Assembly (NCBI GenBank): GCA_036867785.1
Contig: CP145424.1
Location: 620,001 to 684,000, forward strand
Source of the DNA: Plasmodiophora brassicae
Lineage: Eukaryota
DNA length: 64,000 bases
Reading direction: 5' to 3'
Within the stretch, counting starts at the first letter, position 1. Each line of letters opens with the position of its first letter. The translations under genes and the position numbers were made by a program. The notes under the pieces are model-generated. The model was not told where the DNA came from. It saw only the letters and a program-made list of their open reading frames with translations, and did no database searches. This document shows, piece after piece, positions 23,572 to 64,000 of the stretch.

Positions 23572-25130
23572 CTATTCCAACCTCAGCACTGCCGCAGTCC
23601 CGGCGTTATGCGACTTCTGCGATTTCGTGACGTTTGCAACAATGCTGGGCGTCGTTGATGGTACCAGGGTGAACCGGGGCTTAAACATGGCAACTCGGAA
23701 CGCGCTGTCCAGAGAGCGGCCAATGTAGGCCAACGAGAAACTGACCGTCCGGCCCGAAGTCGTGAGTAGAAACACGGGAGACACTGCCATCAGCGCGGTT
23801 CCACTGCACACCATTATTGTCGACAGGGACATGCCCAGAGCGCAGCGACTCAATCGCCCCAGGATTTGGTCCGTACCAGTGCTTCGCCCAGCGGCCTGCG
23901 CTGTCTGCTCCTGGACGTTACGTACAATCCAGTAGTACCGAAGGACACCTGCCAGGACGTGCAGACTGACCGTCAGCTGAACCAGGAACATTATGCCGGA
24001 CGCGAGCTTCGAGAGCAGCGCCATATCGTAGTAAATCGCGAAGACGATGCTGATCGCTGTGTCCATCGCGACAGGGATGACTAAAAGCGCTGCGAAGGTG
24101 ATAGGGTAGTCTCCTCGCAGGATCCGATTAAGCAGCGATTTCGAGTCGACGATCTGCTTAGCGTGCCGGACCCAAACCGACGCCGATAACAACGAGGACG
24201 CGGATCCCCACCCACCAAGCAGGCTCAGAAAGAACTCGCCGACCGGATATGACAGGTACGGTGTGCTGTGAAACCCTCCGATAGCAAGCGCGATCCCTGA
24301 TACCGTCGCCGTGATCATCTCGACGACCAGGACTGTGTGTGCCCGAGTGAACGACCCGCTGGTATGCGTGGCCCACCTTGATAATGACCGACGTGAGACC
24401 GGGACGGCGCTCCTATATTGACGGTCGATGATGCGCATGTGGAAAGCAAAGAACACAGCAGCAGTCACTCCCGATGCAATCATGATGGCACTGGGCAGGA
24501 TCCGGATGAAGATTTGATAACGCCATGATGCGAATGTGGCCTGCCAAACATTGACATCGGGGGAGACGGTGGCATTCTGCCCAGGCCCATCTGTTATCAG
24601 TGCGTTGTACAGGTCAATGCTCGGTCCGATCTGCAGGAATAGCATTGGAAGGTCGCGAGTGTGGGCTCCTTTGGACCCATCGTTGCTGTACAGGTCGTAG
24701 GAAGGAATCCCGCCCACAAACGGCACTGTATATATAGCAGTCAGAACAATAGGGTGACAAGCTGCTGGTACTTACAAATGACAGCAGAGGCTCCGGTGGC
24801 GTAGAGCGTCAGGTACCGGTCCTCGAAAGAGCATCCGGCGCCTGACGCGGCCGCAGTCGTGGCAAACAGAACGCATCCTGGCGCACGCATTACCATTGGC
24901 TTGCACATGTCGCCGTCGAAGAGCACGATCGGTCCGCTTCGGGCGCTGTTGACGACCCCAGGCTGCGGTCCCACGAACGAGGTCAGTGGCGTTGCGTACA
25001 AATCCAGGGCGAAGAGTGGGCTGCCAGGGGGCACTGTGAGGAACGTCACCGAGCTGCGTACGCCTGCAATGTTGAATGCCAAGTGGGCCACCGCTACCAG
25101 CGAGGCCAGCGACCAGGTCCCGCACAGCAT
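23572..25130 (-). CDS. Signal peptide + PA-like ectodomain + 7TM receptor-like protein, copy 1 (one intron ~24728-24775)
   Basis: Hydrophobic N-terminus, C...GCVLF...GCSFEDRY...GASAVI PA-like segment and seven hydrophobic stretches; clearly homologous to 62522-63997. Confidence 0.7.
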
Positions 25131-30523: not shown

Positions 30524-31762
30524 TTAGATTTCAGGTTCCTGCGCTGGGTTGAACTCGACGTACACGACGGCGGCGTCGCTGTCACTGGCTCCGCTACACA
30601 GGCGTCGCAGTTCATCGATTTTCCGTTGCCGAGTTTCTGCTTGTTCAACATCTTTAAAAGAGAGCCACAGGACCCGATCTGTCGCGAGTAGCATGCTGAC
30701 GCTCCCGTCTATAGGTGTAGATGCGACCTTATCCGGCTCCCGACGGAACGGATCCGAGGTCATCGAGCGGAACGGTTCGTTGCGAGGCACGTAAATCTGC
30801 CAGATCGCACGATGATCGTTTGTCAACGAGGACAGCAGCCGGATGTCGTCATCGTTCGGGTCGAATTTGCCTCTGTGGTGTCTCACCATCGCGTTGACAA
30901 CATCCATGTCGCAGTGGTAATCGCCAATGGACCCGTACATCCTCAGACCAGTGATGCCGACCCGGCTGTTGTGGTGCCCTTCAGATTCCACACGACGATA
31001 CGACCGCCCTGCCAGGTCGGCATACAGCATGTTCGCCTTGCTGAACTCCGCCTCGATGCTCTTGGGCAGCAGATCCATGCTTTGCGGCAACGCGTCCACC
31101 ACCTCGTCATCTTCTTTGCGAATCATCCCCACGCTGTCGCCAACCGTCCCGACATGGACTTGACCGTCGGCAACAACCGCCATTGTAGCAGTCGTCCCTC
31201 CTGCGTCGCGAACATCGATCCCTATGCCTTCCAGAGCCTGCCGCTTGATGATCTGGTGCACCTCACGGGGCATCCCCTTCATGATAACGGGAAGGGCATT
31301 GTCATCCTGCTCGGCGATGGACTTCGCCAGAACGTAAGGCAGGTAATGCGCTGCGAGTTGAGCGATCTTCCCGGTCCCGTGCCCGTCGTAGACAGCGAAC
31401 CACGCCACATTCCCAAACCGGTCACGAACTCTCGACGCGACCTCGTTCCAGTAGGAATCGTCCGATGCGAAGCTGGCAGGAAACTGGTCCGAGGACGTCA
31501 ACGCGGCACGGCGCTCGCCGTCTTCGACAAGCCCGGCTACGTCGAAAACGACGTCAGCGTAATCCTGACGAGCACCGCCAGGACGAACCATCGCATACGT
31601 GGACAAGGTCGTCGATCCGATCGCGGCCTCGCCTGTCCAGGTGCAGTCGTCACATGTTGGGAACGCCAGCGGACCACGCGCCGGCACGGGTGCCCCGCCC
31701 ATCGCTGACGTGCTGAACAGGTACGGACCAGCGGCCGCGCGCGATACCGCTCGAGGCAACAT
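30524..31762 (-). CDS. PP2C-like phosphatase, copy 2 (intronless)
   Basis: Paralogue of 19166-20452: FAVYDGHG, GGTTATM, VGDS, LATDRV (DG replaced by DR), SDAAVVYV. Confidence 0.8.
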   Translation of the reverse strand: MLPRAVSRAAAGPYLFSTSAMGGAPVPARGPLAFPTCDDCTWTGEAAIGSTTLSTYAMVRPGGARQDYADVVFDVAGLVEDGERRAALTSSDQFPASFASDDSYWNEVASRVRDRFGNVAWFAVYDGHGTGKIAQLAAHYLPYVLAKSIAEQDDNALPVIMKGMPREVHQIIKRQALEGIGIDVRDAGGTTATMAVVADGQVHVGTVGDSVGMIRKEDDEVVDALPQSMDLLPKSIEAEFSKANMLYADLAGRSYRRVESEGHHNSRVGITGLRMYGSIGDYHCDMDVVNAMVRHHRGKFDPNDDDIRLLSSLTNDHRAIWQIYVPRNEPFRSMTSDPFRREPDKVASTPIDGSVSMLLATDRVLWLSFKDVEQAETRQRKIDELRRLCSGASDSDAAVVYVEFNPAQEPEI

Positions 31763-31859: not shown

Positions 31860-34236
31860 TCACATCGCTAATCGCGTGTCGGCAGCAGCTGGGTCTGTTG
31901 GGGCAGTCGGACGGCACGACGTCGCCCGCAGACGTGCGACCTGCTGTAAGGCGGCGCGCACAGCGGCCTCCAAGGCGTCCAGGCGCTCGATGGACGTCGT
32001 TCCACTGCGCGTGCTGGACGCTGACGCGTCATCACGACCCGATTCACGACTGTCTCGTCCGCTTCGACCGAGGTCCCATTTCTCGCTGCGTCGTTGGGCA
32101 GGGTCGCGCGAAGGCTACGGTGCGGGGTTAGCACTGACGGCGCCCTGTGAGGTGCGGGTACGCCCACGCACCCTAGCTGGCATCCGAACGAAGGACTGAT
32201 CCTGGCCCTGGTGCGACCGTTTCACATGAACCAGGTTGGACAGGTCGGCTTCCGCCTTCTCCAGGAGGGTGTTCGTGATGCCTTCATACGTCCCGATGAT
32301 CCTGCAACGCAGCGTATGAGATGCTGCCCCCCACCTGGCGACACGACGCGCGCCATACAACCTCAACATCGTCTCGATGGGGACCTTGAGCAGTGTGGAT
32401 TCGCCCAGGCTGCGAAGGCTATAGACCCAGGAGTTGGTCAGGAACATGCCAATCTCGCCGACGCTGGCCCCCGTCAGGAACTTCTGGTACACAATGCTCG
32501 AATTGCCGGACGACACGGCCGCGACCTGGCCCTTCACGACCAGGTACCTGCATGCAAACGTCAGCGGTTGCGGGCCTCGCCCAGCCGAAACCAAGACGTA
32601 CCAGGCATCACACGGGTACCCGTACGTGGCAATGTACTGGCCTGGGCGAACACGAACGGTTTCGCCCACTGACAGCACATCCGTTTCGAGGTTCGGGTTA
32701 CCCACCAATTTGAAGAATTCCGACTTTGCGATCAGCTGAACATACGCGAATGAATACGGGGGAGCCAAACGATAGATATGGATGGACCAACCTCCGCGTA
32801 TAAGTGCTCGATGACTTCACGTCGCAGATCGGGCGTCATATCGGCCAAGACGAGGCTTTGGTCAACGGGTTCTCGATGGTCGCGCTTGTACAGCAAGCCC
32901 AGCTCGCGAACGACGCGAGTCTGGAGACTCCTCGGCAAGGATTTGTGGCTCAGGAACTGGCTGACCAGGTGCATCCGCTCCCGGTATGCGGCGCTGTGCT
33001 TGTCAGCCGTCTCCAATATGGAACTGCGGCCGAACCCTTTTAGATACAAACGTGGCACTGGGGACATCTCGTGCAACCAACCTGACCGTCGCAGTGACGT
33101 ACGATATGATGATGGCGCCCGTCGTGAACGCAACCACGGCGACCACTAACTCGCCAGTGGAATGCCCAGACACATCTCCATAGCCGAGCGTGCACAGCGT
33201 CTGCCACGCCCAGTCTGCGAGACCATGGTCAGCGCAGGCGCGGCAGACGACGTAAGCGCAACCTTACACAAGGAGACCAGGTACTGATACGTCTGCGGTT
33301 GCGACAGGATCTCGCCGTTGAACGACCGGTCCAGCCACGACTGGTCTGGGTCCGCTTCGTAGCCGACCCGGTACCAGATGCAGGCGGATAGGTGTGCAGC
33401 GCCCAGCAGCATGATGAAGAGCTTGAGCCCGCGTACGACGCCCTGGTGTACGAGCGGGTTGTACTCGAGGTCGTAGAACATCCTCTGGGCGCGACGCGCT
33501 CGTAGCGTTTTCGCCATGCGAAGAACGCGCAGGGTCAGCCTGGGAAACTTGAGCCCCTGGCTAATGGCGCCGATCGCCGAGAAGGCGCCGTTCGGGGGCA
33601 GTATAAGCGAATACGGCAACGACGCCAGCAGGTCGATCAGGAACCATCCTGTCAGGTACCTCGTCGCGATCCGCTTCAGGGATACGATGAGGTCGCCGTC
33701 GGCGCCTTCATAAGCGGTGAAGAAGGTCAGGAGAAGGTCGGCGAGGTAGAGAAAGTCAATAACGATGTCCAGCGTCGATTCCGGGTCGTCCGGGTGGAAC
33801 GCCACCCGAATGGGCAACACGATGACCGTGTTCAGGAGCAGGCCGATCAGACACAAGTCCCAGGCCCGTTTCACCGGGTGGTCCGGCATTAGAATGTACC
33901 AAGGCGCGACGACCTGTCGGCACGACATCTCAGAACCAGTATGCTGCCGAGGTGGACAACGTGGACCTCTCGGTGCCGATCTTCGACCGCGGATCGCAGT
34001 GCTTCGGCGAAGGTGCCGATGATGGCATCGGACGACAGCAATTCGTCGGAGCGTTGCTGCTCGATCCGCTTCTTGCCTTCCGCCAATGCCAGAGCCTTGA
34101 ACCGTCCGAGGTTCGAGGACGACGACGCTTTCGCGGGATCCAGCGGCTCCGACCGTTGACCGGTCTGGTCAACGATGCGTTGTCGCTCGTCACGGCCGGC
34201 CGACGAACTGCCAGGCGTGATTGACGTGCCCGACAT
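31860..34236 (-). CDS. Voltage-gated K+/cyclic-nucleotide-binding-domain channel, copy A (multi-exon)
   Basis: S1-S4 (LRVLRMAKTLR), pore TLCTLGYGDV, C-linker (LPRSLQTRV...DMTPDLRREV), CNBD (GEIG) and C-terminal coiled coil. Confidence 0.88.
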
Positions 34237-34377: not shown

Positions 34378-36789
34378 CTAGGTAGCAGGTAAGGATGCAC
34401 GCTGGAGCGAGCCGGCCTTCAGACGGTTTATCTGCTGTAGGGCGACGCGTACAGCGCTCTCCATGGCCTCCAAGCGTTCGCCGATCGTGGCGACACCGAA
34501 CCCTGATATCGAAGCGTCGCGGCTTGATTCCCGACTGTGAGAGCCGGCGCCGAGGTTCCACTTGCCGCTCTGACGTGGTGTCGCCGGGCTAGGTTCGTGC
34601 AGAGCCTACGTGCGACTTAGGGCATGTAGCCTGCCCCGGCAATGTATACAGACGTACCGCAGCTGGCGACCGGACGGCGGCCTGAATCCCATCCTGACGG
34701 GTCCGCTTCACACGAATCAAGTTGGATAGGTCGCGCTCCGCCTTCTCCAACATTTTGTTCGTGACGCCTTCGTACGTCCCGAAGATCCTGAGGCAGCAAC
34801 AAACAGCATCAGACGCCGCTTCGCTATTTACAACGTGCGCAAATCGACGGCCACCTGAACATTGTCTGAAGCGGGACCTTGAGCAGTGTGGATTCGCCCA
34901 GGCTGCGCAGGCTGTAGACCCAGGTATTGGTCAGGAACATACCGACCTCGCCGACACTCGCCCCCATTGGAAACTTTTGATACACGATGCTCGAATTGCC
35001 GGACGATACGGCGGCGACGTGGCCCTTCACAACAAGGTACCTGGATCCATCGATAAGGTGCAATGCCATCCCATCACCCAAATGCAACATACCAGAAATC
35101 GCAAGGGAACCCATATGTTGCAATGTACTGCCCCGGACGAACACGAATGGTTTCTCCCGTTGATAGCACATCCGTCTCGAGACTAGGATTGCTCACCAAC
35201 TTGAAGAACTCCGACTTCTTCAGCAACTGGAAACGACAATGAGTTCAGGGCTGCAGAAGTTCGGAAGGTGGAAGACGAAACCTCTTGGTACAAGTTCCCG
35301 ATTATGTCGTGCCGAAGTTCGGGCGTCATATCAGCCAACAGCACGCCGTAGTCGGCCGGCGCCTTATGCTCGCGCCTGTAGAATGCTCCTAGCTCGCGAA
35401 CGACACGAGTCTGAAGACTCGGAGGTAGACGCTTGTGTGCCAGGAATTGGCTCACCAGGTGCATGCGCTCCCTGTACGTGGCGCTGCTCTTGTCAGCCGC
35501 CTGCAATATAGAGCTGGAATGGTACTGTTTAACGGAGATGCAATGCATGGTTAAGCGAAAGCGGCTGACCTGATCGTTGCAGTGATGTACGAGAAAACTG
35601 TGGCGCCCAGAGTAATGACCACGATGGACGTCAGCAATTCCTCTGTGGAATCCCCTGTGACATCTCCATACCCAACCGTACACAACGTCTGCCAGGCCCA
35701 GTCTGCGATATGGTTGTCAGAATACAGCATTTCTGCGTCCGAAGCAACCTTACACAGGGCGACCAGGTACTGGTAGGTTTGTGGTTGGTCTAGGATCCCA
35801 GTGTGGAAGGAACGATCGAACCAGGACTGGTCCGGGTCTGCGTCGAGCCCGATCCGTATCCAAAGGCACGCGGCGAAGTGCCCGACGACCAGCATCACGA
35901 GAAGGAGCTTGGCGGCGCGTATGATACCCTGGTGCACGTGCGGGTTGTACTCGAGGTCGTAAAAGAGTTTCTGGAAACGGCGCGCGCGTAACATTTTAAC
36001 CATGCGAAGCAAGCGCAGGGTGATCCTGGGAATCTTCAGCCCCCGGCCTATGGCACCGACGGTCGAGAACACGCCGTTATGGGGCAATACCAGCGAATAC
36101 GGGAACGATGCTACCAAATCGACAAGGAACCACCCCTTGACATAGCTCAAGGCGATCTGTTTCGGCGAAACGACCAGTTCACCATCGGCGTCCTCGTAGG
36201 CGGTGACGAAGGTCAAAACAAGGTCGAAGAAGAACACGAAGTCAATGACAGTGTCCATCGTCGAATCGGACGTGTCCGGATGGAATGCGACGCGGATCGG
36301 CAGAACGCTGATTGTGTAGGCGAGTAGACCGATTAGGCAGACCTCCCAACACCGCTTCACGGGGTGGTCGGGCATCAGGACGTACCAAGGCACGACGACC
36401 TGTAGCATGCAACGTCAGAGACAGACGGCCAACGGTACGGATGCGTCGACCTCTCGATGCCGATCCTCGACAGCAGAACGCAACGCCTCGGCGAAGGTGT
36501 TCACGATGGCGTCAGAAGATAGGATTTGCGCAACGCGTTTCTCCTCGACCTTCTTCTTGCCTTCAGCTAGTGCCAGGGCCTTGAACCGGTCAACCTTGGA
36601 CAATGACGCCTCCGAGGCAGCCGACCGATCCAGCGCATTGGTTCGAGCCGACGTTGTTATCGCATCTTGTGCAGTTGCAGGATGGTCTGCTGCCCCAGGC
36701 GCTTCGGAGCCGGGCTGTTGAGGACGTTCGGCACCGTCTCCGGCATCTGGCGAGGCAGTACGCGTAGCCTGCGCCACTCGTGCCAGCAT
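34378..36789 (-). CDS. Voltage-gated K+/cyclic-nucleotide-binding-domain channel, copy B (tandem paralogue)
   Basis: Same architecture and matching intron positions as copy A; pore TLCTVGYGDV; GEVGMFLTNTW. Confidence 0.88.
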
Positions 36790-40891: not shown

Positions 40892-41828
40892 TCATTGCTC
40901 ACTGCGAGTAGTTTGTGGCTTCAACTCCACGTAGACGAGGGCGGCATCGTCGACCGATCCACCGGTCATGTTCCTCAGGATTGCAACCTTCTCGGACGGG
41001 TCAGCGGATTCCACGTGCTGGACCGATTTCCATAATGGCACGCCGTCCGTTGCCAATATGAAACTCAGGGTGCCGTCAACCAGCGCCGATACGATCGAGT
41101 CCGGTTCTCGACGGAACAGATCTGATGTCATTAAGCGAAACGGTCCCGGGAAAGGCACGAAGTCTCGCCAGGTATCTCGATGATCCTTCGTCAGCGAGCA
41201 CAGCATCTTAACATCGGGATCGTTTGGGTCGAAATCCCCCTTGTGGTACTTCACCATTGCGTTGACAACATCCATATCACAGTGATAATCGCCAATGGAC
41301 CCGTACATCCTCAGACCCGTGATCCCAACACGATTATCTCGTCCTGCAGTCGCTTTACGCTCGTATGATGAACACCCGGCCAGATCACCATACAGCATGT
41401 TCGCCTTGTTGAACTCCTCCTCAACGTCCCACGGCAGCGTGTCCATACTTTGAGGTACCGAGGAAACGTATCCCGTTGACGTGTGAATCAGGCCCAGGCT
41501 ATCGCCAATGGCCGCGATGTGAACGTGACGATCAGTGACTACGGCCATTGTAGCAGTCGTTCCTCCTGCATCGCGGACGTCCATCCCATGACCCTCGATA
41601 GCCTGTCGCTTGACGATATGGTGGACCTCGCGGGGTAGACCTTTCAAGATGACGGGCAGATCAGTATCGTGGTGCTCGGCAATGGATTTCGCCAGGACGT
41701 ATGGCGTGTAGTGCGCTGCGAGCCGAGCAATCTTGTGGGTCACATGCCCATCGTAGACAGCAAACCAGGTCACCTTGCCGAATCGCGTACGAATCTGCGA
41801 TGCAACATCGTTCCAGTAGGAATCATCA
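40892..41828 (-). pseudogene. 5'-truncated near-identical duplicate of PP2C-like copy 1 (copy 3)
   Basis: Matches copy 1 from DDSYWNDVAS to the stop; DGHG changed to DGHV; lacks the N-terminus; ~200 bp of 3' flank is also shared (40700-40891 vs 20453-20649). Confidence 0.8.
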
Positions 41829-42969
41829 GCGGGCGCCCGCAAAGGCATCGGTGCTCCGGCCAAGGCAGCTAGGTAGTGATGCCAAGGGCGTTGCGCAACG
41901 GGCTCGACGACTGCAAAAGCATGAAGCTTTTCCAGCCACAGGAATAGGAGCGAATTTCCGGACGCTGATCTGCGTCTGACCCACTGATCAGTTCTAATAG
42001 CACTCCTCCGAGCCCTTTCCCTGCAGATATCGATATCGCGGTGACGGGCTCGCTTGCGCTGCCTGTCTGTGCCTGCTTGCAGAGTGTATGCACTGCGTCT
42101 TCATCTGTAAGCTGCGTATTGTTACTGACGACGCTGGTGTTTGTTCATGTTTACCCAGGGTCACGTACAGAATGCCAACGAACAGCTGCGGCAGGCTATC
42201 GACGAGGTATTGGATATGACGAATGAGGCCGCTTTCCGACATATAGGTACCGATGCTGCTGACTCCACGCGGAATGATTCAACAGGCGATGAGGCCGACG
42301 CCGACAACGACGGTGAATTTAATGACAATGAAGACGCTGCCGAGATGGGCGGAGAGCGTTTTGATGCCGGTTGTGCACATGTCGGAGCTAAGGCGTGGGT
42401 CGGTCAGACTGAGATAAAAGATTCGCATGGCAATACAGTTGCGCAATTGACAGTCGACCGCTGCCGAGAGGAGTACCTGTGCATTCGTGATGGTCGTATC
42501 AGAAGGTCTCCACCCGGTTTCCGTGTCTGCCCTGCGTAATAACGGCCTTGGAAAGAGCAGGACGGCAGCTAACGGACTGTCCGAAGTCCTGGAAGGACCG
42601 TCGTATCAACAGGTGTACTCTCCGCCAGGTGCTGTTGCTCCCTGTGTTCCTTGTATCCCAAGAGCGATAATCGTTGATTCCGCTGGACATGCATGTGGAT
42701 GTGTAAGTAACGCGATTGCCTCCGCTATGGTCATCGAGCATGTTAACCGTGTTTCCGCAGACAGTAACTCTGTGGCAGCGGTTGCTTTGGTACGATGCTG
42801 TCCAAATATGACCAATCGCGTTTGTTAACGTGCTAATTGATTTGATATGCTTTTAGGCTACCCACCTTTGCTTGTTCACCCAGCCCTAGCACGGCGTGTC
42901 GAGGCACCTTCGATCCAGGACGCCGGGTCAGCCGATCGGGATGTTTGTTTTTTGGCTGATTGATGAGCG

Positions 42970-52298: not shown

Positions 52299-52435
52299 GA
52301 CATGTGCGACTTTTGGGCCCTCGCCACGCCGTATGTTATGGCACGGCCGCGACGGGGGTCGCGCAGCCGCGCAGTTTGAATAAACGTCCACGGCAACCGA
52401 CGGCTTCGGCAGTCCAAATACACGATAGATTTGAC

Positions 52436-52835
52436 CTAATTGTCACAGCGCACGTTCCCCTAATTGTCACAGCGCACGTTCCCCTAATTGTCACAGCGCA
52501 CGTTCCCCTAATTGTCACAGCGCACGTTCCCCTAATTGTCACAGCGCACGTCCCCCTAATTGTCACAGCGCACGTTCCCCTAATTGTCACAGCGCACGTC
52601 CCCCTAATTGTCACAGCGCACGTTCCCCTAATTGTCACAGCGCACGTTCCCCTAATTGTCACAGCGCACGTTCCCCTAATTGTCACAGCGCACGTTCCCC
52701 TAATTGTCACAGCGCACGTTCCCCTAATTGTCACAGCGCACGTTCCCCTAATTGTCACAGCGCACGTTCCCCTAATTGTCACAGCGCACGTTCCCCTAAT
52801 TGTCACAGCGCACGTTCCCCTAATTGTCACAGCGC
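52436..52835. repeat. 24-bp minisatellite, 16 full copies plus a partial
   Basis: Unit ctaattgtcacagcgcacgttccc, near-perfect; two copies carry a t>c variant. Confidence 0.97.
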
Positions 52836-53216
52836 CAGTGTCTGTTGGGCAGTTACGGACTGCGCCAGTCGGGCAGTTCTGGGGCAGCTGCGGGGCGGCT
52901 GATCGGTTATATACCAATATCTCTCCCGTGTTTCAATGGGCATTTCAGTAATTCCCCTTTTTAAGATTCCTTCTAATAAGCCCTGGATGCCTGCGTCGGG
53001 TTCGAAATGACGGCCTAAGCAAGATCCGTATCTTGGTTAATTCAAGCCGAGGATTGCCCATGACGGTCAGAGACCGCCAATTTGTTGCAACTTGTAACTG
53101 CTCGCCGTACCGCGTAAAAGTTTGTGGAAGGTGCATTGCACACGATTGCCAATCCGGACAGGTATGGGTGACGGAGGGTCGGCAGCGCTAACAGCAAGCG
53201 ATTCTCTGGAGCCGAA

Positions 53217-54249: not shown

Positions 54250-54776
54250 GTCATTGTCATCGCTGTCGGGACGTGGATCTGTTGTGTCCTTGACGGGAGG
54301 TAGCACCGCGAGAAGACCCTCGTTCTCCGCGAGGAGATCCTCGTTCGCCGCGAGGAAATTGTGAACCGCCGGCTGATGCAACTGCTAGCGGTGTCCGGTG
54401 CAGCCTTGCCCGAGGACGCGAGGGCGCAGTTGGCCATCCAGGTGGCAAAGTCGACAACGATGACAATGACTGTGAACAGAATAATGAACACCGCCCAAAG
54501 ATACGGTTCGGCCATTATGCAGGCGCATCATTCAACTAAAGGCGCTGTCAGTTGCCACCTGGATGGCCGGCTGCGCCCTCGCGTCCTCGGGCAGGCTGCG
54601 CCGGACACCGACAGGAGTTGCATCAGCCGGCAGCAATTTCCTCGCGGTGAACGAGGATCTCCTCGCGGCGCTGCCTCCTGCCAAGGACACAGTAGATCCA
54701 CGTACCGGCAGCGATGACAATGACTGTGCACAGAAGGATGAACACCGCCCAAAGATACGGTTCGGCCATTATGCAG
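54250..54776. repeat. Rearranged duplicate of a small single-TM gene: inverted repeat 54250-54448/54552-54724 and direct repeat 54458-54522/54712-54776
   Basis: Two MAEPYLWAVFI starts on the - strand; the 3' part of one copy is inverted; both copies carry a stop or frameshift. Confidence 0.75.
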
Positions 54777-55088: not shown

Positions 55089-56038
55089 TCAAGATATCGG
55101 CGAGACGGACGTAGGCGCAATCAACTTCTGTGCAGGTCTGGGGACGGGCTTCGCGTTCAAGACGTAGTCGCCCGGGATGAACGACTCGCGGATGACGAGC
55201 TCGTTGCCGCACATTGGACTCGTCCTCCGCACCCTGGCTTCATCGACGACCTTATGAAGTTCATCCATGGCCGACTGGGGTGCTGACAGGTACGTCGTCA
55301 CCCATTTCGGAGAGATCGGCCGGAAGTGATTGCATGTCGAATCCCAGATATTGTCCAGAGGAGGTTCAGCTTTCAACTTGGCGACAACTGTAAATCGTGT
55401 GAAGCCGTCGAGACGTGTACTCGGAGCATGGTTGATGGCGTGTTGCACCAGAGGGCATAGTAGGGCCAGTTGTAGGAGCTGATATGGCGCCCCTCGTTGA
55501 GAACGTTTCGCAGGATGTCAACTATTGTGCGGTTGGCGCGTTCCAGTACAGTACCGTTTGCCCATGGGCGGTACGCCAGCGTTATCATGTGATGCTCCAC
55601 GTATCGCAGCCGGGTCATGAGCTCGTTGATGAACTCGGCGGTAAATTGGGGTCCACCGCTTACCATCGGTGACAAGATATTGTGGGGGTTTAAAGTCGGC
55701 AATCAATTGGGATAATGCCTCTGCCGCAGCACGACTGGTCGCTTCAGCGCATGGAATCAAGCGGACCAGACCACTGAAGTCGTCCTTCATCACGAGGATG
55801 TACTTGTACGAGCGATCTGTTCCTCGAACTGGTTCCACGTTCAAGTAATCCATGTGCAGGACCTGGAACGGCATCTGACCATGTAGTGCTTGATCGCCAA
55901 GGGGACTTGGGACCTTCGCGCCTCCTCGCGTTGGGACGCATTGAAAGACACTACTGGCACATCTGCTGAATGTCCATGTCCATGCCCGGCAAAGCAAAGC
56001 GCGTTGTGGTTGCCTCTTTGGTAACGTCGCAAGCACGA
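55089..56038 (-). mobile_element. Degenerate older Gypsy integrase (downstream part), interrupted by the intact element
   Basis: PFQVLHMDYL, YKYILVMKDDFSG, AYRPWANGT..ERANR, FIPGDYVL; frameshifted. Confidence 0.85.
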
Positions 56039-56235
56039 TGTGCTAACGCCGCCGCTGCCCACTACGGGGGCGGTCGGTCGCAAGAGTCGGCGCCTGGTGA
56101 TATAACGAACTGATGTATTTGGACAGGATCGTCACAGCAAGGGCCGCTGCGGGGTCGAGTACGGTCATGATCATGTGACCGGGTGGCAGCAGCATCTGAG
56201 CAGCATCATCTGAGTACTGGTACTCTGGATGAACA
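56039..56235 (-). repeat. 3' LTR
   Basis: 197 bp, identical by eye to 61178-61374. Confidence 0.95.
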
Positions 56236-56244
56236 CTCCCCGTG

Positions 56245-59200
56245 TTAGAAATCTGCTAACAGTCGTGAGCAGAGCGGGTCTCCTTCGGCTTGTCGTTCGA
56301 GGAAGGCCCTGACGATATCAGGAACATCGGCCGCCATGACCGAGTAAGGTTCCCATGAATTGTCGGTGGCATCGAATCCGATCCAGTTGATCAGTAGTTC
56401 AGTGTCACCTGACGTAGAGTTGACTCGAATGTCCTCGACTGCGTTGACTTGGTAAGCCACGCCGGTGAGCGCGATGTTGTGCTTCAGGGAAGAGGTGACA
56501 TTCAAGTGCGCATCTGCATAGAACATTAAGCGCTGGGCGTGTACATCTGAGATACGATCAGTCAAGAGATCTCGAACTCGATACACCCAGTCGTTGATGG
56601 TGTCGATAATCTGGGCAGGTCCAGTCCAGTTGTACTCGGACTTGGAGTGCTTGCCATGGTTGGCCACGAGAACATAGTCGCCCGTCGTGAAGTTGATCTC
56701 GCGAACATTGCGTCGGCGACGCCGGGCGCGTTGCTTGAGATCACGTAGATGGGTGCGTGTACGTGCCACTGCTTTGTGCATGTCCTCGAGAGAATCGATA
56801 AGTTCCGTCGTCATTTCCTTGAGACGGTCAGGGGTCAACGGTACGTCGATAACCGCGTCGATGCGTTTGTTGAAGATAATCGAGATAGGTGTCGAGGGTG
56901 GCAAACCCGTAAACATCGTGACAGGCGCGTAGCCCACACTTGATCGAACAGTGTGATTTACCGTCATGTTGATCAGCGGAAGGACATACGGCCAATCCTG
57001 GAATGGAAGATTTAGCTCGGAGAGGAGGGACTTCAGCAGAAAGAGAAGCCGCTTGTTGACAACCTCAACCGTGCCGTTCGCCCAAGGTGTGTAGGCAGTT
57101 GTGAAATGATGGTTGCAGTGTAACCGGCTATTAAGCTCGGCGATAACCGCGTTTTTGAAGTGTGTGCCGCGGTCAGAGACATGTTGGAAAACAATGCCGA
57201 AACGTTTGAACCAATCCAGAAGAGATTCGGCGACAACGCTGTGATCCGCGAATTGACAAGGAATTAACTCGACGAATGCCGTGGCGTCGTCCTTCAGAAC
57301 CAGAACATAACGAAGTTGATGAGAATCGCCTGGACGAGGTTTGGATAAGAACAGAAAGTCATAGTGGATGACCTTATTGGGCTTGTCCGCATGCATAGCC
57401 GTGCCAAAAGGTCGGGGAATCATCGAATCTTTGTTGCGTAGGCAGTGTAAGCATTTGTCCACAAATGCACGAACAAAGGAATCCAGATCAGGCCACCAGA
57501 AGAGTTGTGCGATGCTCGAAATAGTCGATGCAGCAGGTTGATGACCAGACAGTCCCATATGTGAAATCACTGCGATGCGTAGCTGCAGTGCATGTGATGG
57601 TACCCAGAGTTGATTGTCTGGAGTACGCCAGCCAGATTCCGGGCTAAGGTGGAGAGACATGTCCCCTTCGAGTTGGAGAATATCGGAAACGGCAGATAGG
57701 TCGTGTTGGCGAATGTAGTCGGTCTGAGCGTTACTAATCTCGTCGACAGACGGCCAGATAAACTCATCGGTCATCTTGTAATCGTCGAAGTCAAGATTAA
57801 TTGCCATATGACGAATAGAACGGAACGATGGAGGGGAAAATGAGGAGAGTGGTTGCAGGGCGACGCCCCACCGCGTGGCGAGGTCGGCCCAAACGTTGTC
57901 CTCCCCAGCAATGTGCTCAATGTGAAAATCTAGGTCGATAATCTGAAGTCGCCAGCGCTCCAAGCGATCGCCGGTCGTCCGACTAATTCGTGCAACCGAG
58001 GCTGGGTTCAGAATGAAAACCAAATTACGGTGGTCTGTGAAGATTCGAAGTGCCAGCTTTGACATAGAGATGAAGTGTCTGAGGCGATAGCAGCCTTCAA
58101 TGATGGCGTAGGCCTCCTTCTCAATGGTCGCCCACTTCAATTGAGAACCACGGAATGTCCCCGAGATGAACGACAAAGGTTCGTGGTGTTGCTCACCGTA
58201 CGGGAGATCAATATCTTCCGGAGGGATCTGCGACAGGAAAACAGACCAGAAACGGTCACTCGCATCCGGAAAGAGACACATGATCCATTCGTCCTTGGTG
58301 TGCGCCAGCGTCATGGCCTCCGATAGTCGATGCTTCAGAGAATTGAAACTGGTGAGATGGTCAGTGGTCCAGCCGATGTCGGCTAAACGAACTCGACGTA
58401 GGTGTGATTTCTTCAGACTGCTGACAGAACGAGAAGCGGACAGAAGTAGATCCTGTAGCGGATGAACATGTGCCGCGAATTGAGGGATAACAGAACGGAC
58501 CCAATTGAGGCCCGAGAGGAACTGTTGGAGATCAGCAGCCGTGATAGGAGTTGATAGATCGTGCAAGGCGTTGAGATACGAGCGATCGAACGACACTCCA
58601 TCAGCGGATATAACGCGACCGCACCATGTCACTGAAGTGAGATATAACTGGCAGCGATCAGGGTTGAGTTTAACTCCAAACTCGTCGAAAGCGTTGAGAA
58701 GAGATTCGAGTGTGTCCATGTAGGCTCCGAATCCAGATACGTAGCCGAGGATATCGTCGATCCAGAGTAGGGCGCAGATATATAGAAGTTTCCCCAACAC
58801 CTGTTGCATTCCCGCCTGGAACGCAAACACGCAATCAGCGATTCCCTGGATGATGCGCCTGGGTGTAAACGTGGCGATGTGCGTCATGAACGAGCAGGCC
58901 TCCTGCGAATCAGGGTGCAACGGAAATTGCCAATAGCCTTTAAAGGCATCGAACAGCATGAAGATGGTCGCGGAACGTAGGTAGGTCAGGATGATGTCGA
59001 TGTGAGGCATCGGCCATGCAATGCGTTCGGTCTGTTTGTTGACGGCTTCATTGATGTCGACGGTCAGCCGATGGCCGCGAACCTCCGTGTCCTTCTTGTC
59101 GACGACCAGACACGGCGACGCGTACCTGCTGTGCGGATTGCGGTACACAAAATCGTTTTCCGCCAAGGTTCCTACGTGATCATCCATGAATTTTTGATGT

Positions 59201-61134
59201 TCGAGGGTATACCTTCGTGTTCGGCAACGAACAGGACGAGCATCTGCTTTGAAGTGTAGTTTCAGTGGACTTACTTTCGCAGGTGGATCACGGCCAAGCT
59301 TCGTTCGCCATATGTCTTTGTGTCGATTGACAGTTGTGCGTAGACGCGGGACTTGATCGTTAGGGAAACCGGAGTCAGTTGCACGTTGTATCATCCGGTC
59401 TATTGCCCTGTCCACGTCTGTATCGGAGTGTTCTCCGATTTCGACATCATAGTCGTCACCCGGATCATTGGTGTCCAATTGGGGCTCATGATCGCGAGTT
59501 GTTCCACTTACCTCCGGGTGTCTTACCGCTCTCATCGTGATCCCTTGACCACCTGGGGCGTGACGTTCCGGGGTCGGATCCGCTTCGATGATGATAGGAC
59601 CATTTGCCTCGATTAACATCTCCTTCAGTTGTGTAGCTGGATTGATACCCAACGCGTCCAGTTCCGGGGCTCCTAAAAGGACAATGTCATCAGATAGGTC
59701 TTCGCGACATACGTTGATTTCCCGCCCGCGTAGATGTGCAGGTTTGCCATGCGAAGGTGGGACAATGGTGATGTCCACGATCGCTGTGGCGACAATTGTT
59801 GTCGTAGCCCCGATCGTTGCAAGTTTCGCCTCCGTTGGATGGTCGAACACTTTGACTGGGACATGCTGGATGGCTTGAATCCGTAGCAGTTGCGATTGCG
59901 AAATGACGGTCTTCGTCGCACCACTATCGGCTTCGAATGGAAGGTCGAGCGAGTTCTGGAAGCGAAGTCTCATAGGGGACGGTGTTGACGGCGACGGCGG
60001 GCCCATGCGCTTTGCCGTGTCTGCGTTGCCCTTACTCTCCTCCTTCTCTTTGCGCTCTTTCTGGAACTTTTCAATGGCAGCTTTGCGTTCTCCTTGAGTT
60101 GCCTTCGGGCACACTTGGACCCAGTGCTGCTCCTTGCAGATTAGGCAACCTGCCTTTGGAGGATCCTTACCTTCGAAACGTTTTCGGATGTGCTCGGGGA
60201 TGTCCCTCGATTCGTCTTTCGTTTGCGATGTGGACGATTGAGCTGTCTTCAGTCCGATCGGATTTGTCGGATGCTTGCCGCCATTCCTATTCGGAGCAAC
60301 AACGTCCTTACCTTTCTTACCTGCAGGTGGGGACATGGTCTGCGCTGGAGACTTCTTCTTCTCAGCTTGCAGCCGGAAGTGTTTGTCCTGCTCTTTGGCA
60401 AGACGGTCGACGAGGTCGAAGAATTTGAGCTCGTCCTTCTCAGCGTCCCTGCACCCTCCGAACTCGATCGCGCGTTCGACTAGAACCGCAAGGTCAGTGG
60501 GACGGATACCTCCGCGTAATACCTTGATCTTGCGCTTGGTTCCTTTCGTTCCTTTGGCGTATGTGTCTTGTAGCCCATAGTCGTCGATTAGCTCATCGAA
60601 CTTGGCGAAGAAAGACGTGACACGTTCCTCAATACTCTTGATTGACAGGTTCATGACCACTGTCTTCGTGAGAAGCGCCTTGATGTCTGTCGAACTCTCG
60701 ACATCAGCCTCCCTGCGTTGGACTGACCTCAAGTAGCTCATGATGTCGCCATCCGTGATCGTGCTGGCGGGTTGACGTAGGCGATATTTCGACATCCCTC
60801 TGAGGACGTCCTCGGTAATGCATGACTTCACCGTTGGCGGATGAATATCCTCCTTGTAGATCAGTCGGCGCTCGTTAACGATCTCGACGTGTTTCCTATA
60901 TTTCTTGAGGAAATCGTTAATTCCGTCCTTGGCCGTAAGGCTCAGGGTACGTAGGATGGGCGGTTTCAAAGGCATAAAGATCGGGCTCTTACCGTGCAGG
61001 TTTGTTGACTGAAGCCCTCGATCGATTTCGTCATCTGTCGACGATTCATGCTCCTTGGCCTCGGCGTCGGAGTTGGTCCTGGCGTCGTCCTCCATCTGTA
61101 GACGAACGGGCGCTCTGCGGCCACCTCCTGCCAT
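56245..61134 (-). CDS. Gag-Pol polyprotein (Gag with CCHC, protease, RT, RNase H, integrase, chromodomain), 1629 aa
   Basis: CLICKEQHWVQVC; ADSGA; FDAFKGYWQ and LWIDDIL; DASD, EKEAYAI, TDHRNL; HHCC and DDE integrase; LLINWIGFDATDNSWEP. Confidence 0.97.
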   Translation of the reverse strand: MAGGGRRAPVRLQMEDDARTNSDAEAKEHESSTDDEIDRGLQSTNLHGKSPIFMPLKPPILRTLSLTAKDGINDFLKKYRKHVEIVNERRLIYKEDIHPPTVKSCITEDVLRGMSKYRLRQPASTITDGDIMSYLRSVQRREADVESSTDIKALLTKTVVMNLSIKSIEERVTSFFAKFDELIDDYGLQDTYAKGTKGTKRKIKVLRGGIRPTDLAVLVERAIEFGGCRDAEKDELKFFDLVDRLAKEQDKHFRLQAEKKKSPAQTMSPPAGKKGKDVVAPNRNGGKHPTNPIGLKTAQSSTSQTKDESRDIPEHIRKRFEGKDPPKAGCLICKEQHWVQVCPKATQGERKAAIEKFQKERKEKEESKGNADTAKRMGPPSPSTPSPMRLRFQNSLDLPFEADSGATKTVISQSQLLRIQAIQHVPVKVFDHPTEAKLATIGATTTIVATAIVDITIVPPSHGKPAHLRGREINVCREDLSDDIVLLGAPELDALGINPATQLKEMLIEANGPIIIEADPTPERHAPGGQGITMRAVRHPEVSGTTRDHEPQLDTNDPGDDYDVEIGEHSDTDVDRAIDRMIQRATDSGFPNDQVPRLRTTVNRHKDIWRTKLGRDPPAKVSPLKLHFKADARPVRCRTRRYTLEHQKFMDDHVGTLAENDFVYRNPHSRYASPCLVVDKKDTEVRGHRLTVDINEAVNKQTERIAWPMPHIDIILTYLRSATIFMLFDAFKGYWQFPLHPDSQEACSFMTHIATFTPRRIIQGIADCVFAFQAGMQQVLGKLLYICALLWIDDILGYVSGFGAYMDTLESLLNAFDEFGVKLNPDRCQLYLTSVTWCGRVISADGVSFDRSYLNALHDLSTPITAADLQQFLSGLNWVRSVIPQFAAHVHPLQDLLLSASRSVSSLKKSHLRRVRLADIGWTTDHLTSFNSLKHRLSEAMTLAHTKDEWIMCLFPDASDRFWSVFLSQIPPEDIDLPYGEQHHEPLSFISGTFRGSQLKWATIEKEAYAIIEGCYRLRHFISMSKLALRIFTDHRNLVFILNPASVARISRTTGDRLERWRLQIIDLDFHIEHIAGEDNVWADLATRWGVALQPLSSFSPPSFRSIRHMAINLDFDDYKMTDEFIWPSVDEISNAQTDYIRQHDLSAVSDILQLEGDMSLHLSPESGWRTPDNQLWVPSHALQLRIAVISHMGLSGHQPAASTISSIAQLFWWPDLDSFVRAFVDKCLHCLRNKDSMIPRPFGTAMHADKPNKVIHYDFLFLSKPRPGDSHQLRYVLVLKDDATAFVELIPCQFADHSVVAESLLDWFKRFGIVFQHVSDRGTHFKNAVIAELNSRLHCNHHFTTAYTPWANGTVEVVNKRLLFLLKSLLSELNLPFQDWPYVLPLINMTVNHTVRSSVGYAPVTMFTGLPPSTPISIIFNKRIDAVIDVPLTPDRLKEMTTELIDSLEDMHKAVARTRTHLRDLKQRARRRRRNVREINFTTGDYVLVANHGKHSKSEYNWTGPAQIIDTINDWVYRVRDLLTDRISDVHAQRLMFYADAHLNVTSSLKHNIALTGVAYQVNAVEDIRVNSTSGDTELLINWIGFDATDNSWEPYSVMAADVPDIVRAFLERQAEGDPLCSRLLADF

Positions 61135-61177
61135 TAAGTGAGTTCGTTTGCTTGGGGCTCTTTGCGCAAGAAGCTTC

Positions 61178-61374
61178 TGTGCTAACGCCGCCGCTGCCCA
61201 CTACGGGGGCGGTCGGTCGCAAGAGTCGGCGCCTGGTGATATAACGAACTGATGTATTTGGACAGGATCGTCACAGCAAGGGCCGCTGCGGGGTCGAGTA
61301 CGGTCATGATCATGTGACCGGGTGGCAGCAGCATCTGAGCAGCATCATCTGAGTACTGGTACTCTGGATGAACA
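61178..61374 (-). repeat. 5' LTR
   Basis: 197 bp, identical by eye to 56039-56235. Confidence 0.95.
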
Positions 61375-61379
61375 CACGA

Positions 61380-61790
61380 TGTGGATCAATGGCACAATGG
61401 CCAATGATCGTGATGCGAAGGCGCAAGCTGGTGCAGTCGTTTGTGATCCGGGATCAGAACGGCGTTCGTTTTCGACTTCCACAAACGGGTGTCATCATCG
61501 AAGAACACGTCGTCGTCGATCATCTCCTCGCGCGATAACCGCCTCTGTCATTCTCGGATCTCGGTCCCGGTCGGCCATTATATTGGAAGTGGGGATGCTT
61601 CATCGGCGTTACTGGAAGATCGTCCACCTGCAAGGTGCGCGTCGACCGACACCCCAGTGCAATGCGGCCTGCGCCCTAACGAGACACCAGGTCGGCCCAG
61701 AAATCGAATCCTTGCAGGTGAAGCGCCCAACGCTCGATCTTCTGCGCCGTATGCTTCTTCATCTCAGCGTCCTCGCAACCAGTACCGGCT
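61380..61790 (-). mobile_element. Degenerate older Gypsy RNase H / integrase N-terminus (upstream part)
   Basis: DAEMKKHTAQKIERWALHLQG..WADLVS; LRLRITIIGHCAIDPHR runs up to the TSD and continues at 56038. Confidence 0.75.
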
Positions 61791-62521
61791 GTGTTTGCGC
61801 TGGGTCAGTTTAGAAAGACTATCCGAGCCAAGGCTGCCGATGGTGAAGGTGCGACCAGAAAGTCGATCTACATTCAACGATGTACATTCAACCGGTTCTG
61901 GTTGAATTCTCTTGGTAAACTCAGGGAGCGGGTTGCTCGGGATGTACGACAACTTCGGCGACAAGGTTTTCATTGCGTCTCCAACTAGCTTGCAACCCTG
62001 GGGCTTGCCCTTATATATGTAAGGACAAGAAGTGCCGGATATAATTCTCCAGGCCAGAAGGTTCGCAACATGCCTGGTGTTGTTGACCATGGCATGCCAC
62101 CAGCATGAAGCGTCTTAAACCTGCTACTGCTCATCAGGGTTCATCAAAGGGCACGGATACTCGATCAAGTGGACGAACAACCGCAAGAAGTGTGATGCGA
62201 GCGCGCAAACGCCTCTCCTCCAGATCTTGAAGTCTAAATTGGCTACACCTGCAGTGAGGGGTTGTTGGACATGCGGGTCCACGATGACGAGTTTCGTCCC
62301 CTGTTTACAGGGACTGTCGAAGCTCCTCGTGCAACGTCCTTACATGGAAATCCTGTTCCTGATCTCTAAAGCCTGGTGATCATCAACAAGGACGTATTAC
62401 ATGTAGACCGACCGCGAGCCATGAGAGCATTCATCTTTAGCAGAATGGGAATCCGGCTAAGGCAGGGTTCCCTTCCAGACCCGCAACCTCATTGCCGAGC
62501 GCCCATCAGCACGCGTGGACT

Positions 62522-63997
62522 TTAATGTAGCACATTGCGATCGACAGGCGCCTGCACAGGTAAGATACGGCGTTCGTCGCGTGCAGGTGACGGTTGTGCC
62601 AGCATCACGCGGCACAGGCTTGTCAGCGCACGCATAGTCCCGCCTCCTGCCCAGAAGAGCATCCAGCCGACGTGCGTGTACACGAATGTACCAATGCCGA
62701 CGGACAGGAAGCACACGAATGCAATCATGGACACGGACAGGTACAGGGTCCACCGGGACAGCCTGATCAGGAGCCTGTGCATGGCGTCCGGGCGCTTGCT
62801 CCTTTGGACAGAGTGGTTGAGAATCCTCTGGAACCTCAGCGACTGCACCAGGAACTGGATGCCGACGACCCGTTGCAGGATCATGATCAGAGCGGCTGTG
62901 AGCAGGTAGTCGTAGGGTACGTTGACGTACAAGACGTTGAGCAGGCACGCAACCGTGTCGAGCGTAACGGGAAGGACACAGAACGCGACCTTGATCATGT
63001 AGTGGCGGTCCAGAAGCCGACCGAACCACGAACCGCGTCCGGACCCAGGGATCTCCTTGATGATGCTCGTCCAGAAGACCGCGCTGAGCACGTCGCAGGT
63101 GAATCCCCACCCGGACAGGCCCGTTAGGAAGAATAGGGTCATCTCGTGAGGAAGGATGTCGTTGCTCCCCCAGCCGCCGATGCCAATGAACGCGCACAAG
63201 GCGGGAGTCGTCACCAGCTCAATGACGAGGATCAGGTGTACGATGGAGAGGCGACTAGCGATGAACTTGATGCGACGTCTCCTCGTTCGCATCGACGGCG
63301 CTGGCAACGTGCCATCGAATTCGGCATTGATAAACGTGAGGTGCTTACCGAGGAACCTAGCGGCAAGGACGCAGGCGAACCCGAACACGACGGTCGGAAT
63401 CCATCGCAGCAGAACCTGGATGTACCATCGAGGGTAGAAGTCGTCCCAGTCGTTAACGTCGGGTCGCACGCTGATGACGATTGGGTCCTTCTTCTGCCAG
63501 CTGTCCATAAGGTAGTCGACAAGAGAGGTACCCGGCTGTGCGGGTTCCTCCACCTCCACAAACAGCATCGCGTTCCTGCCGGGCCCGAGCATGCCACTGT
63601 TGCGGTGATAGAATTCAATTGGATCTGTCACATCCTGCCCGTTCGGGAATATGATGATCCAGGCCGCAACGCCTTTCTCGTCCAGGCGGCTGTACACCAC
63701 CGACACCGGGCATCCGACAAGAGGGGCACCGGCACCCGATACCAGAAAGACGATGCGACCTCGAGCCTCGTCTGGGACGTCACGGTTCGTGACGCACAGG
63801 GTGTCGCTGTTCACGACCATGAATTCGGCGGTGACGTTGACGATGACGGCATCGGTGCCCTGCGGGCCGAGGTACCTGTTCTGGGGGACGCTGCGCGTCC
63901 GAATGCCTGCGAACGGCGACAGGGCCGGTTGTATGATGACCAGCGCGCTGTGCATGCCCGGGAGCAGGCACGCCGTTACGACGACGAATCGCAGCAT
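62522..63997 (-). CDS. Signal peptide + PA-like ectodomain + 7TM receptor-like protein, copy 2 (intronless)
   Basis: MLRFVVVTACLLPGMHSA signal; LC...ARGRIVFLV...GCPV...EKGVAAWIII PA-like motif; PDVNDW; seven TM segments; homologous to 23572-25130. Confidence 0.75.
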   Translation of the reverse strand: MLRFVVVTACLLPGMHSALVIIQPALSPFAGIRTRSVPQNRYLGPQGTDAVIVNVTAEFMVVNSDTLCVTNRDVPDEARGRIVFLVSGAGAPLVGCPVSVVYSRLDEKGVAAWIIIFPNGQDVTDPIEFYHRNSGMLGPGRNAMLFVEVEEPAQPGTSLVDYLMDSWQKKDPIVISVRPDVNDWDDFYPRWYIQVLLRWIPTVVFGFACVLAARFLGKHLTFINAEFDGTLPAPSMRTRRRRIKFIASRLSIVHLILVIELVTTPALCAFIGIGGWGSNDILPHEMTLFFLTGLSGWGFTCDVLSAVFWTSIIKEIPGSGRGSWFGRLLDRHYMIKVAFCVLPVTLDTVACLLNVLYVNVPYDYLLTAALIMILQRVVGIQFLVQSLRFQRILNHSVQRSKRPDAMHRLLIRLSRWTLYLSVSMIAFVCFLSVGIGTFVYTHVGWMLFWAGGGTMRALTSLCRVMLAQPSPARDERRILPVQAPVDRNVLH

Positions 63998-64000
63998 TCC

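Follow-up and report, generated by a model that had tools for sequence, protein, structure and literature searches.

What kind of protein is encoded by the gene at the end of a 64,000-nucleotide (nt) stretch of Plasmodiophora brassicae DNA, and could it be a receptor? The stretch, positions 620,001 to 684,000 of contig CP145424.1 (assembly GCA_036867785.1), is referred to here at its full length as the window. The gene lies at 62522..63997 on the minus strand and is one of only two members of its family that tblastn detected in the window; we refer to it as member 2 and to the other as member 1. An earlier reading, made from the letters without database searches (the sequence-only reading), had described member 2 as a seven-transmembrane receptor-like protein with a PA ectodomain, from a fast-diverging family that spreads in transposon-rich DNA, possibly by retroposition. 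The reading that we favor, with a probability of about 0.5, is that member 2 is an orphan surface receptor, in which the PA ectodomain would bind a ligand and the helix bundle would relay the signal across the membrane.

The gene consists of one uninterrupted, intronless open reading frame (ORF) of 491 codons that runs from an ATG at 63997 to 62522, with the stop codon at 62522-62524, as supported by the ORF list, the relatives and an AlphaFold2 model. The single 491-aa ORF of the sequence-only reading thus stands, with its strand now set as minus, and all the strings quoted there occur in the translation (the PA-like stretch at residues ~78-116, RTRRRRIK at 237-244 and RSKRPD at 399-404). A single codon separates the ATG from the window end, and the promoter, the 5′ flank and a possible upstream start or exon fall beyond the window. 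The same Met column is the start in the paralogs P0001, P0002 and P0004 (subfamily alignment). Judged from its sequence, this is an intact, functional P. brassicae gene for a membrane protein of uncharacterized function.

Over the first ~388 residues, member 2 is 97-99% identical to the public model PBRA_009353. That model (P0002, 402 aa) matches residues 1-388 of member 2 at 99% and then ends in an unrelated short tail. The member 2 ORF keeps homology to all other paralogs up to about residue 483. As the 491-codon ORF is continuous, the public 402-aa model looks truncated, probably via a mis-called splice, and likely needs correction for genome annotation.

Predicted architecture of the member 2 protein

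Member 2 is predicted to be a multi-pass membrane glycoprotein with its N-terminus outside and its C-terminus inside, running from a signal peptide through a PA-fold ectodomain, the PDxNxW linker and a seven-helix bundle to a short tail. The AlphaFold2 model of the whole protein, with the 41-row family alignment as input, has a predicted local distance difference test (pLDDT) score of 88.8 and a predicted template modeling (pTM) score of 0.86. The hydrophobic N-terminus (residues 1-17; 63947..63997, minus strand) is a candidate signal peptide: hydropathy peaks at residues 1-25, a low-confidence helix spans 2-11 and the first strand begins at 18. It is probably cleavable, the cleavage site being our own estimate rather than the output of a prediction tool.

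Residues 18-178 (63464..63946, minus strand) are modeled as a beta/alpha domain. When the model was compared with the PDB using Foldseek, the first 37 ranks among the matches listed were PA-bearing chains, aligned over ~130-225 columns with probabilities of 0.92-1.00. These include M28 aminopeptidases, ZNRF3/RNF43 ectodomains, VSR1, a PNGase, transferrin-receptor apical domains and C5a peptidases. Measured by target, the isolated VSR1 PA domain 4tjv has a template modeling (TM) score of 0.61, and the ZNRF3/RNF43 ectodomains score 0.58-0.61. In sequence, the domain has a Gly, a hydrophobic strand, a Cys, K-G-(V/A)-A-A and a second hydrophobic strand, which we take to be the usual PA pattern. 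The PA-like motif of the sequence-only reading is matched by a PA-fold ectodomain in a confident model. The Pfam PA family (PF02225) gave sub-threshold matches in 7 of 44 family members (best E 4e-4) and in 6 of 21 in a smaller scan. Because Pfam PA stays sub-threshold while the structure matches PA chains, we call the predicted ectodomain PA-fold only, and membership in PF02225 at the sequence level is not supported. The ectodomain has an NVT sequon at N54, and Cys68 and Cys96 are invariant in the subfamily. The sole Pfam match of member 2, iSTAND, was rejected as being at chance level (E 0.16).

The seven-helix bundle (residues 191-466; 62600..63427, minus strand) was delineated from an AlphaFold2 model of this part, Foldseek, the Atlas, conservation and the distribution of lysine and arginine (K+R). 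Modeled alone, the bundle has a pLDDT of 93.0 and a pTM of 0.90. The helices span residues 191-230, 252-274, 295-315, 333-355, 363-399, 405-435 and 442-466, mostly with pLDDT >90. Helices 3 and 7 are missed by plain hydropathy at its threshold. The count of seven, which agrees with the sequence-only reading, thus draws on the model together with the charge pattern. Helices 1, 5 and 6 are 40, 37 and 31 residues long, and therefore would protrude past the thickness of the membrane, helices 5 and 6 into the cytosol.

The best PDB matches of the bundle are class A G-protein-coupled receptors (GPCRs). The top match is the EP1 receptor (9m1h_A), with TM scores of 0.57/0.58, a root-mean-square deviation of 6.6 and E 0.036, and the chemerin, succinate, P2Y1 and FFAR2 receptors are also among the matches. 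Most of the bundle matches listed have TM scores of 0.40-0.53. A structure search in the Atlas, which used its own model, placed a P2Y14 (7tm_1) cluster at a TM score of 0.68 and a fungal rhodopsin-domain cluster at 0.62. By sequence, none of the 44 family members, member 2 included, matched PF00001 at E ≤ 1, and the seven-transmembrane Pfam families matched at most one member each (7tm_7, 7tm_6 and Srh, at chance level, E 0.02-0.08). Thus, the modeled bundle appears GPCR-shaped, yet outside every described family tested.

The positive charges give the orientation. K+R number 7, 3, 2 and 4 (16 in total) in the four loops on the predicted cytosolic side and 0, 0 and 0 in the three outer ones, in agreement with the basic intracellular loops of the sequence-only reading. 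With all loop K+R on the cytosolic side and a sequon in the ectodomain, the predicted topology is N-out and C-in, which fits the cell surface and an organelle lumen alike. The features fit an N-terminus that is outside or lumenal and a C-terminus that is cytosolic.

Outside the membrane, the best-conserved stretch is the juxtamembrane PDxNxW motif (residues 179-184; 63446..63463, minus strand). In alignment A2 (41 relatives), D180 is kept in 39, N182 in 35 and W184 in 36 of 40 filled rows. The best-conserved helix positions across the same 41 relatives are Q194, R198, P201 and H219 in helix 1, L257 and E260 in helix 2, G296 and W309 in helix 3, D347 in helix 4, R412 in helix 6, and G444, W449, R456 and S460 in helix 7, with R198, E260, D347, R412 and R456 as the conserved polar residues in the bundle. 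Judging from the alignment, a conserved linker and polar core would be expected if ectodomain and bundle work together, although this says nothing of what they do. The cytosolic tail (residues 467-491; 62525..62599, minus strand) is poorly conserved: it varies among paralogs, and pLDDT is <50 for residues 475-491.

The family and its two members in the window

We searched 5.8 billion proteins (8000 candidates scored) and found 8 relatives at E ≤ 0.001, with E-values of 7e-148 to 2e-289. Six of the 8 are from P. brassicae: PBRA_009353 (97% identity), PBTT_09246 (89%) and four more at 51-58%. In public databases the closest relatives are labeled as uncharacterized, hypothetical or "transmembrane protein." An exhaustive phmmer search of 1.84 billion cluster representatives recovered 51 at E ≤ 1e-3, 37 at E ≤ 1e-10 and 12 at E ≤ 1e-30. 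With the 41-row alignment as query, the 5.8-billion-protein set yielded the 8 proteins already found with the single query and no others, and with the distant representative P0053 as query it yielded P0053 alone.

The distant relatives have an amino-acid composition strongly unlike that of P. brassicae proteins, and an Atlas look-alike cluster (score 0.94, a lead only) has Zoopagomycota as its commonest phylum. Given this composition and the look-alike cluster, the family probably reaches beyond P. brassicae, which we treat as a lead. No prokaryotic relatives were confirmed: 40 pattern stretches were matched with the A1 alignment in 185,579 species genomes, and tblastn confirmed 0 of them.

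A quick tree of 47 rows, from which 12 of the 57 fetched proteins (each <330 aa) were left out, placed member 2 in a 9-row clade (support 100), whereas member 1 fell in another clade, of 24 rows (support 95). By sequence comparison, member 2 is one of at least 9 close paralogs inside a much larger, deeply diverged family of common architecture. The paralogs are 475-503 aa long and conserved over their full length. P0005 and P0006 share a reported longest contig (5,785 bp), as do P0003 and P0004 (1,127,679 bp). Because two paralog pairs report identical longest contigs, there is a hint of local (tandem) duplication within the family, in which case P0005 and P0006 would be near neighbors.

Member 1 lies at 23572..25130 on the minus strand and was delineated by tblastn, sequence reading and hhalign. 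It has two exons (25130..24776 and 24725..23572), which spliced give a frame of 502 codons with no internal stop (502 aa). The 50-nt intron (24726..24775, phase 1) starts with GTAAGT, contains CTGAC and ends in ACAG. The two proteins share 25% identity (blastp E 8.5e-30, residues 12-469 against 21-468), and hhalign of the two subfamilies aligned 452 columns, including those of the ectodomain, with a probability of 100 and E 1.2e-63. The sequence-only reading had named two findings that would speak against it, a lack of profile homology to member 1 and a protein without seven transmembrane segments; what we found is homology to member 1 along the whole length of the protein and seven modeled helices. 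It had also noted that member 2 lacks the intron of member 1, and the ORF is indeed uninterrupted across the corresponding region. Both members are intron-poor, given the mean of 4 introns, averaging 60 bp, that passages of a genome study (PMC4471660) report for P. brassicae genes.

Candidate functions, origin of the copy and the surrounding window

How might such a protein work? PA domains in VSR, RMR, ZNRF3/RNF43 and SPPL2 bind peptides or proteins. By likeness to these, the PA domain of member 2 may bind a peptide or protein ligand outside the cell. Ligand occupancy would then pass through the PDxNxW linker to the helix bundle, where E260, D347, R412 and R456 may form a buried set of conserved polar residues, and the long cytosolic extensions of helices 1, 5 and 6 could engage an intracellular transducer. 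Ligand binding, a surface location and signaling are what we infer for member 2 from its family, its fold resemblances and its topology signals.

By fold resemblance, a chemosensory or host-sensing, G-protein-coupled role is possible. A GPCR-pathway inhibitor reduced clubroot symptoms in a study cited in passages of a review (PMC9180986), from which it follows only that GPCR-type signaling is thought to matter in P. brassicae. A bolder version, which we put forward tentatively, is that the family constitutes a class of eukaryotic seven-helix receptors not described before, with PA as the ligand-binding ectodomain, expanded in plasmodiophorids and present in other eukaryotes. By this class P. 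brassicae would sense peptides or proteins from its host or surroundings when its spores germinate, when its zoospores home or when it grows intracellularly.

Several results weigh against the receptor reading. In the Pfam scan of member 2, no family was above the cut-off and PA was not matched at E ≤ 1, and no member scanned reached the PA gathering score of 23.9 bits (the best, P0032, has 20.9 bits). Foldseek found no PDB match at E ≤ 0.001 for either the whole model (best E 1.2e-3) or the bundle (all 0.036 or worse), and profile searches of PDB sequences with alignments A1 and A2 gave only chance-level matches (XPD, IMP-1 and PsbZ; E 0.12-1.4). The TM scores of 0.45-0.58 for the EP1, chemerin, succinate, P2Y1 and FFAR2 receptors would mark a similar bundle, not GPCR membership, and microbial rhodopsins also match the bundle, at lower TM scores (0.32-0.37). 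DRY, NPxxY and helix 8, as we take these motifs to be defined, were not seen in the sequence or model of member 2: helix 3 ends in ...SIIKE, and helix 7 reads ...RALTSLCRVML, followed by the disordered tail. Finally, the ectodomain is hardly more variable than the helices, unlike in many fast-diversifying chemoreceptor families. Over 8 subfamily rows, mean pairwise identity is 54% in the ectodomain and 60% in the helices; over 27 full-length rows, the figures are 23% and 27%. Such a slight difference does not bear out the fast divergence that had been proposed from the sequence.

Member 2 could instead be an endomembrane cargo or sorting receptor, with a lumenal PA domain that binds cargo, as in plant VSR/RMR proteins, and seven helices that serve as a trafficking platform, as in seven-transmembrane proteins of the Golgi and trans-Golgi network. 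We consider this a serious possibility, though well short of probable. VSR1 lumenal or PA domains (9b1r, 4tjv, 8r4y and 4tjx; TM by target 0.61 for 4tjv) are among the best ectodomain matches, the topology signals suit a lumenal N-terminus equally, and the missing class A signaling motifs fit as well. There is also a precedent in Arabidopsis, where a GPCR-like seven-transmembrane module regulates secretion from the endomembrane system, according to a preprint (10.1101/2020.10.20.345868). However, the tail of member 2 is short and disordered, with neither the tail itself nor any sorting motif in it conserved, and neither a GOLD-domain seven-transmembrane structure nor one of Wntless type is among the 46 bundle matches listed. 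Moreover, a large family of diverged paralogs is presumably more usual for sensors than for sorting receptors. If the sorting explanation were true, the family would represent a novel type of sorting receptor with a PA domain, outside plants.

A different kind of explanation concerns how the gene arose rather than what it does: member 2 may be a retrocopy from a family that spreads in transposon-rich DNA and that, like chemosensory genes, is driven apart fast by diversifying selection. We regard this as unlikely. In its favor are an intronless member 2 beside an intron-bearing member 1, a Gypsy relic whose edge is ~750 bp downstream of the member 2 stop codon, and the divergence from PBTT_09246, the nearest named relative (ortholog or paralog), which is just 89% identical, whereas two sequenced P. 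brassicae strains are 98.67% similar genome-wide according to passages of PMC11191646. On the other hand, no A-run is longer than 4 in the 1,146 bases that follow the stop (61376-62521), leaving no poly(A) remnant to support the proposed retroposition. The one intron that member 2 lacks is that of a paralog with which it shares only 25% identity; at such a distance, any hallmark of retroposition would have long decayed. The two paralog pairs with matching longest contigs hint at local duplication instead. In addition, the differences from PBTT_09246 are spread evenly across ectodomain (21/173) and helices (22/200).

Nor does the surrounding DNA suit a family that spreads with mobile elements, since the window holds mostly ordinary genes and a tblastn search of it with the Gypsy polyprotein found nothing near member 1. 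Next to member 2 we identified an apparently intact Ty3/Gypsy chromovirus-type retrotransposon with long terminal repeats (LTRs) at 56039-61375 (minus strand), with a 1629-codon ORF encoding reverse transcriptase, RNase H, integrase and a chromodomain. Its 198-nt LTRs are identical (198/198), with TG...CA ends and a 5-bp CACGA target duplication, and by sequence it looks like a very recent insertion. Given the identical LTRs, it is far younger than the member 2 copy, which has 89% protein identity to its nearest named relative. An older, degraded Gypsy-type pol relic flanks the intact element in two colinear pieces, at 55149-55913 and 61410-61768 (minus strand), with matches to an integrase core (55913..55149, E 4e-13), the end of an RNase H (61768..61667, E 0.003) and, weakly, a pre-integrase domain (E 2.4). 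Since these pieces flank it colinearly, the young element seems to be nested in the relic, and to be much younger than the gene copy. The Gypsy debris placed beside the gene by the sequence-only reading is thus real as regards the old relic, but the material there also comprises the fully intact element.

A transporter, channel or intramembrane enzyme, in which the PA domain gates or recruits a substrate as in SPPL2, is a further possibility, to which we give little credence. The charged residues conserved within helices (E260 in helix 2, D347 in helix 4, R412 and R456) are what such a protein might have, an SPPL2A cluster occurs in the Atlas structure list (at a TM score of just 0.33), and SPPL2 PA domains affect substrate cleavage according to PMC12043953. 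However, member 2 has seven helices, not nine. As we take the catalytic motifs to be defined, member 2 has no GxGD, and the PAL in its helix 2 is not conserved in the nearest paralog, P0001. Of the subfamily-invariant aspartates D347 and D302, D347 alone is kept family-wide, and no presenilin/SPP, SWEET or PQ-loop structure is among the fold matches listed. We therefore rejected an SPPL-like protease as a candidate on its seven helices, on the catalytic motifs that were not seen and on fold matches that are GPCRs, not presenilins.

Finally, a chance ORF or dead pseudogene is very improbable, for although high-GC DNA yields long spurious ORFs (for example, a 285-aa frame on the opposite strand at 63146..64000), member 2 has 491 stop-free codons, full-length conservation with paralogs of 475-503 aa, motifs kept across 41 aligned relatives and a very confident fold (pLDDT 88.8 for the whole, 93.0 for the helices).

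The remaining genes of the window encode a zinc finger protein, Ras, Raptor, Rpb5, a GH18 protein, a WD40 protein, three PP2C proteins and an ion channel. The three PP2C-domain ORFs (19166-20452 on the plus strand, 30524-31762 and 40892-41848 on the minus strand; E 5e-9 to 3e-7) form a second local multigene family within 22 kb. Two Ion_trans ORFs on the same strand (33146-33928 and 35551-36408, minus strand; E 2e-15 and 2e-17) probably belong, as exons, to a single multi-repeat cation-channel gene. We also noted a tandem array with a 24-nt period at 52339-52914, in which 17 overlapping 192-nt copies at 24-nt spacing are 97-100% identical in the center, and a 71-nt direct repeat (54452-54522 and 54706-54776) with 93% identity and copy starts 254 nt apart.

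Comparison with known systems

We know of no account of how the clubroot parasite perceives its host, and of almost no P. brassicae membrane protein with an assigned function. In the open-access text searched, the locus tags PBRA_009353, PBRA_002531 and PBTT_09246 are not mentioned, and word matching found no description of an architecture that combines a PA domain with a seven-transmembrane or GPCR-type protein. For P. brassicae together with GPCR or seven-transmembrane terms, the same text contains only citations of Bi et al. (2019). Passages of the P. brassicae pangenome preprint on transmembrane proteins, gene families and receptors do not mention the family. The proteins themselves are already in public databases; what is new is this type of ectodomain, PA, on a seven-helix receptor-like protein. 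A large, parasite-expanded family that joins a protein-binding module to a GPCR-shaped bundle offers a concrete set of candidate sensors. If member 2 is a receptor, it would add a new ectodomain type to the seven-helix receptor architectures, and if the family is a novel receptor class, it could be the missing receptor layer upstream of the GPCR-type signaling implicated by the inhibitor work.

Class A GPCRs (PF00001) have in common with the modeled member 2 the seven helices and the predicted outside N-terminus, and they are the best structural matches of its bundle, but there is no sequence similarity and another set of residues is conserved. The nearest named feature clusters in the Atlas, for residues 186-475, are PRRT3 (PF25987), THH1/TOM1/TOM3 (PF06454) and GPR137_N (PF27607), eukaryotic seven-transmembrane proteins of poorly known function. 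Their scores of 0.80-0.85 are below 0.9, the level above which a feature score is more than a lead, and none of the 44 family members matched their Pfam models at E ≤ 1; we rejected these three leads.

Among well-known multi-pass membrane families, SPPL2 is to our knowledge alone in carrying a lumenal or extracellular PA domain at the N-terminus. Its members have nine helices and the catalytic motifs YD and GxGD, neither of which was seen in member 2. SPPL2a/b/c and the modeled member 2 have an N-terminal PA-type domain followed by a multi-pass core in common, but in SPPL2 the core is of presenilin type. A PA-transmembrane-RING ligase (RNF13, RMR and ZNRF3/RNF43) or a VSR was ruled out as an identity for member 2 by its seven helices, its 25-residue tail and the lack of a RING or EGF match in Pfam.

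Among PA domains as such (VSR1, ZNRF3/RNF43 and M28 aminopeptidases), the predicted ectodomain of member 2 folds alike, with a Foldseek probability of ~1.00 and a TM score by target of 0.5-0.61 for PA-only chains, whereas sequence identity to the PA structures is 9-17%. Known PA domains are fused to a peptidase, to a single helix plus RING, or to EGF repeats; in member 2 the PA-fold domain is fused to seven helices.

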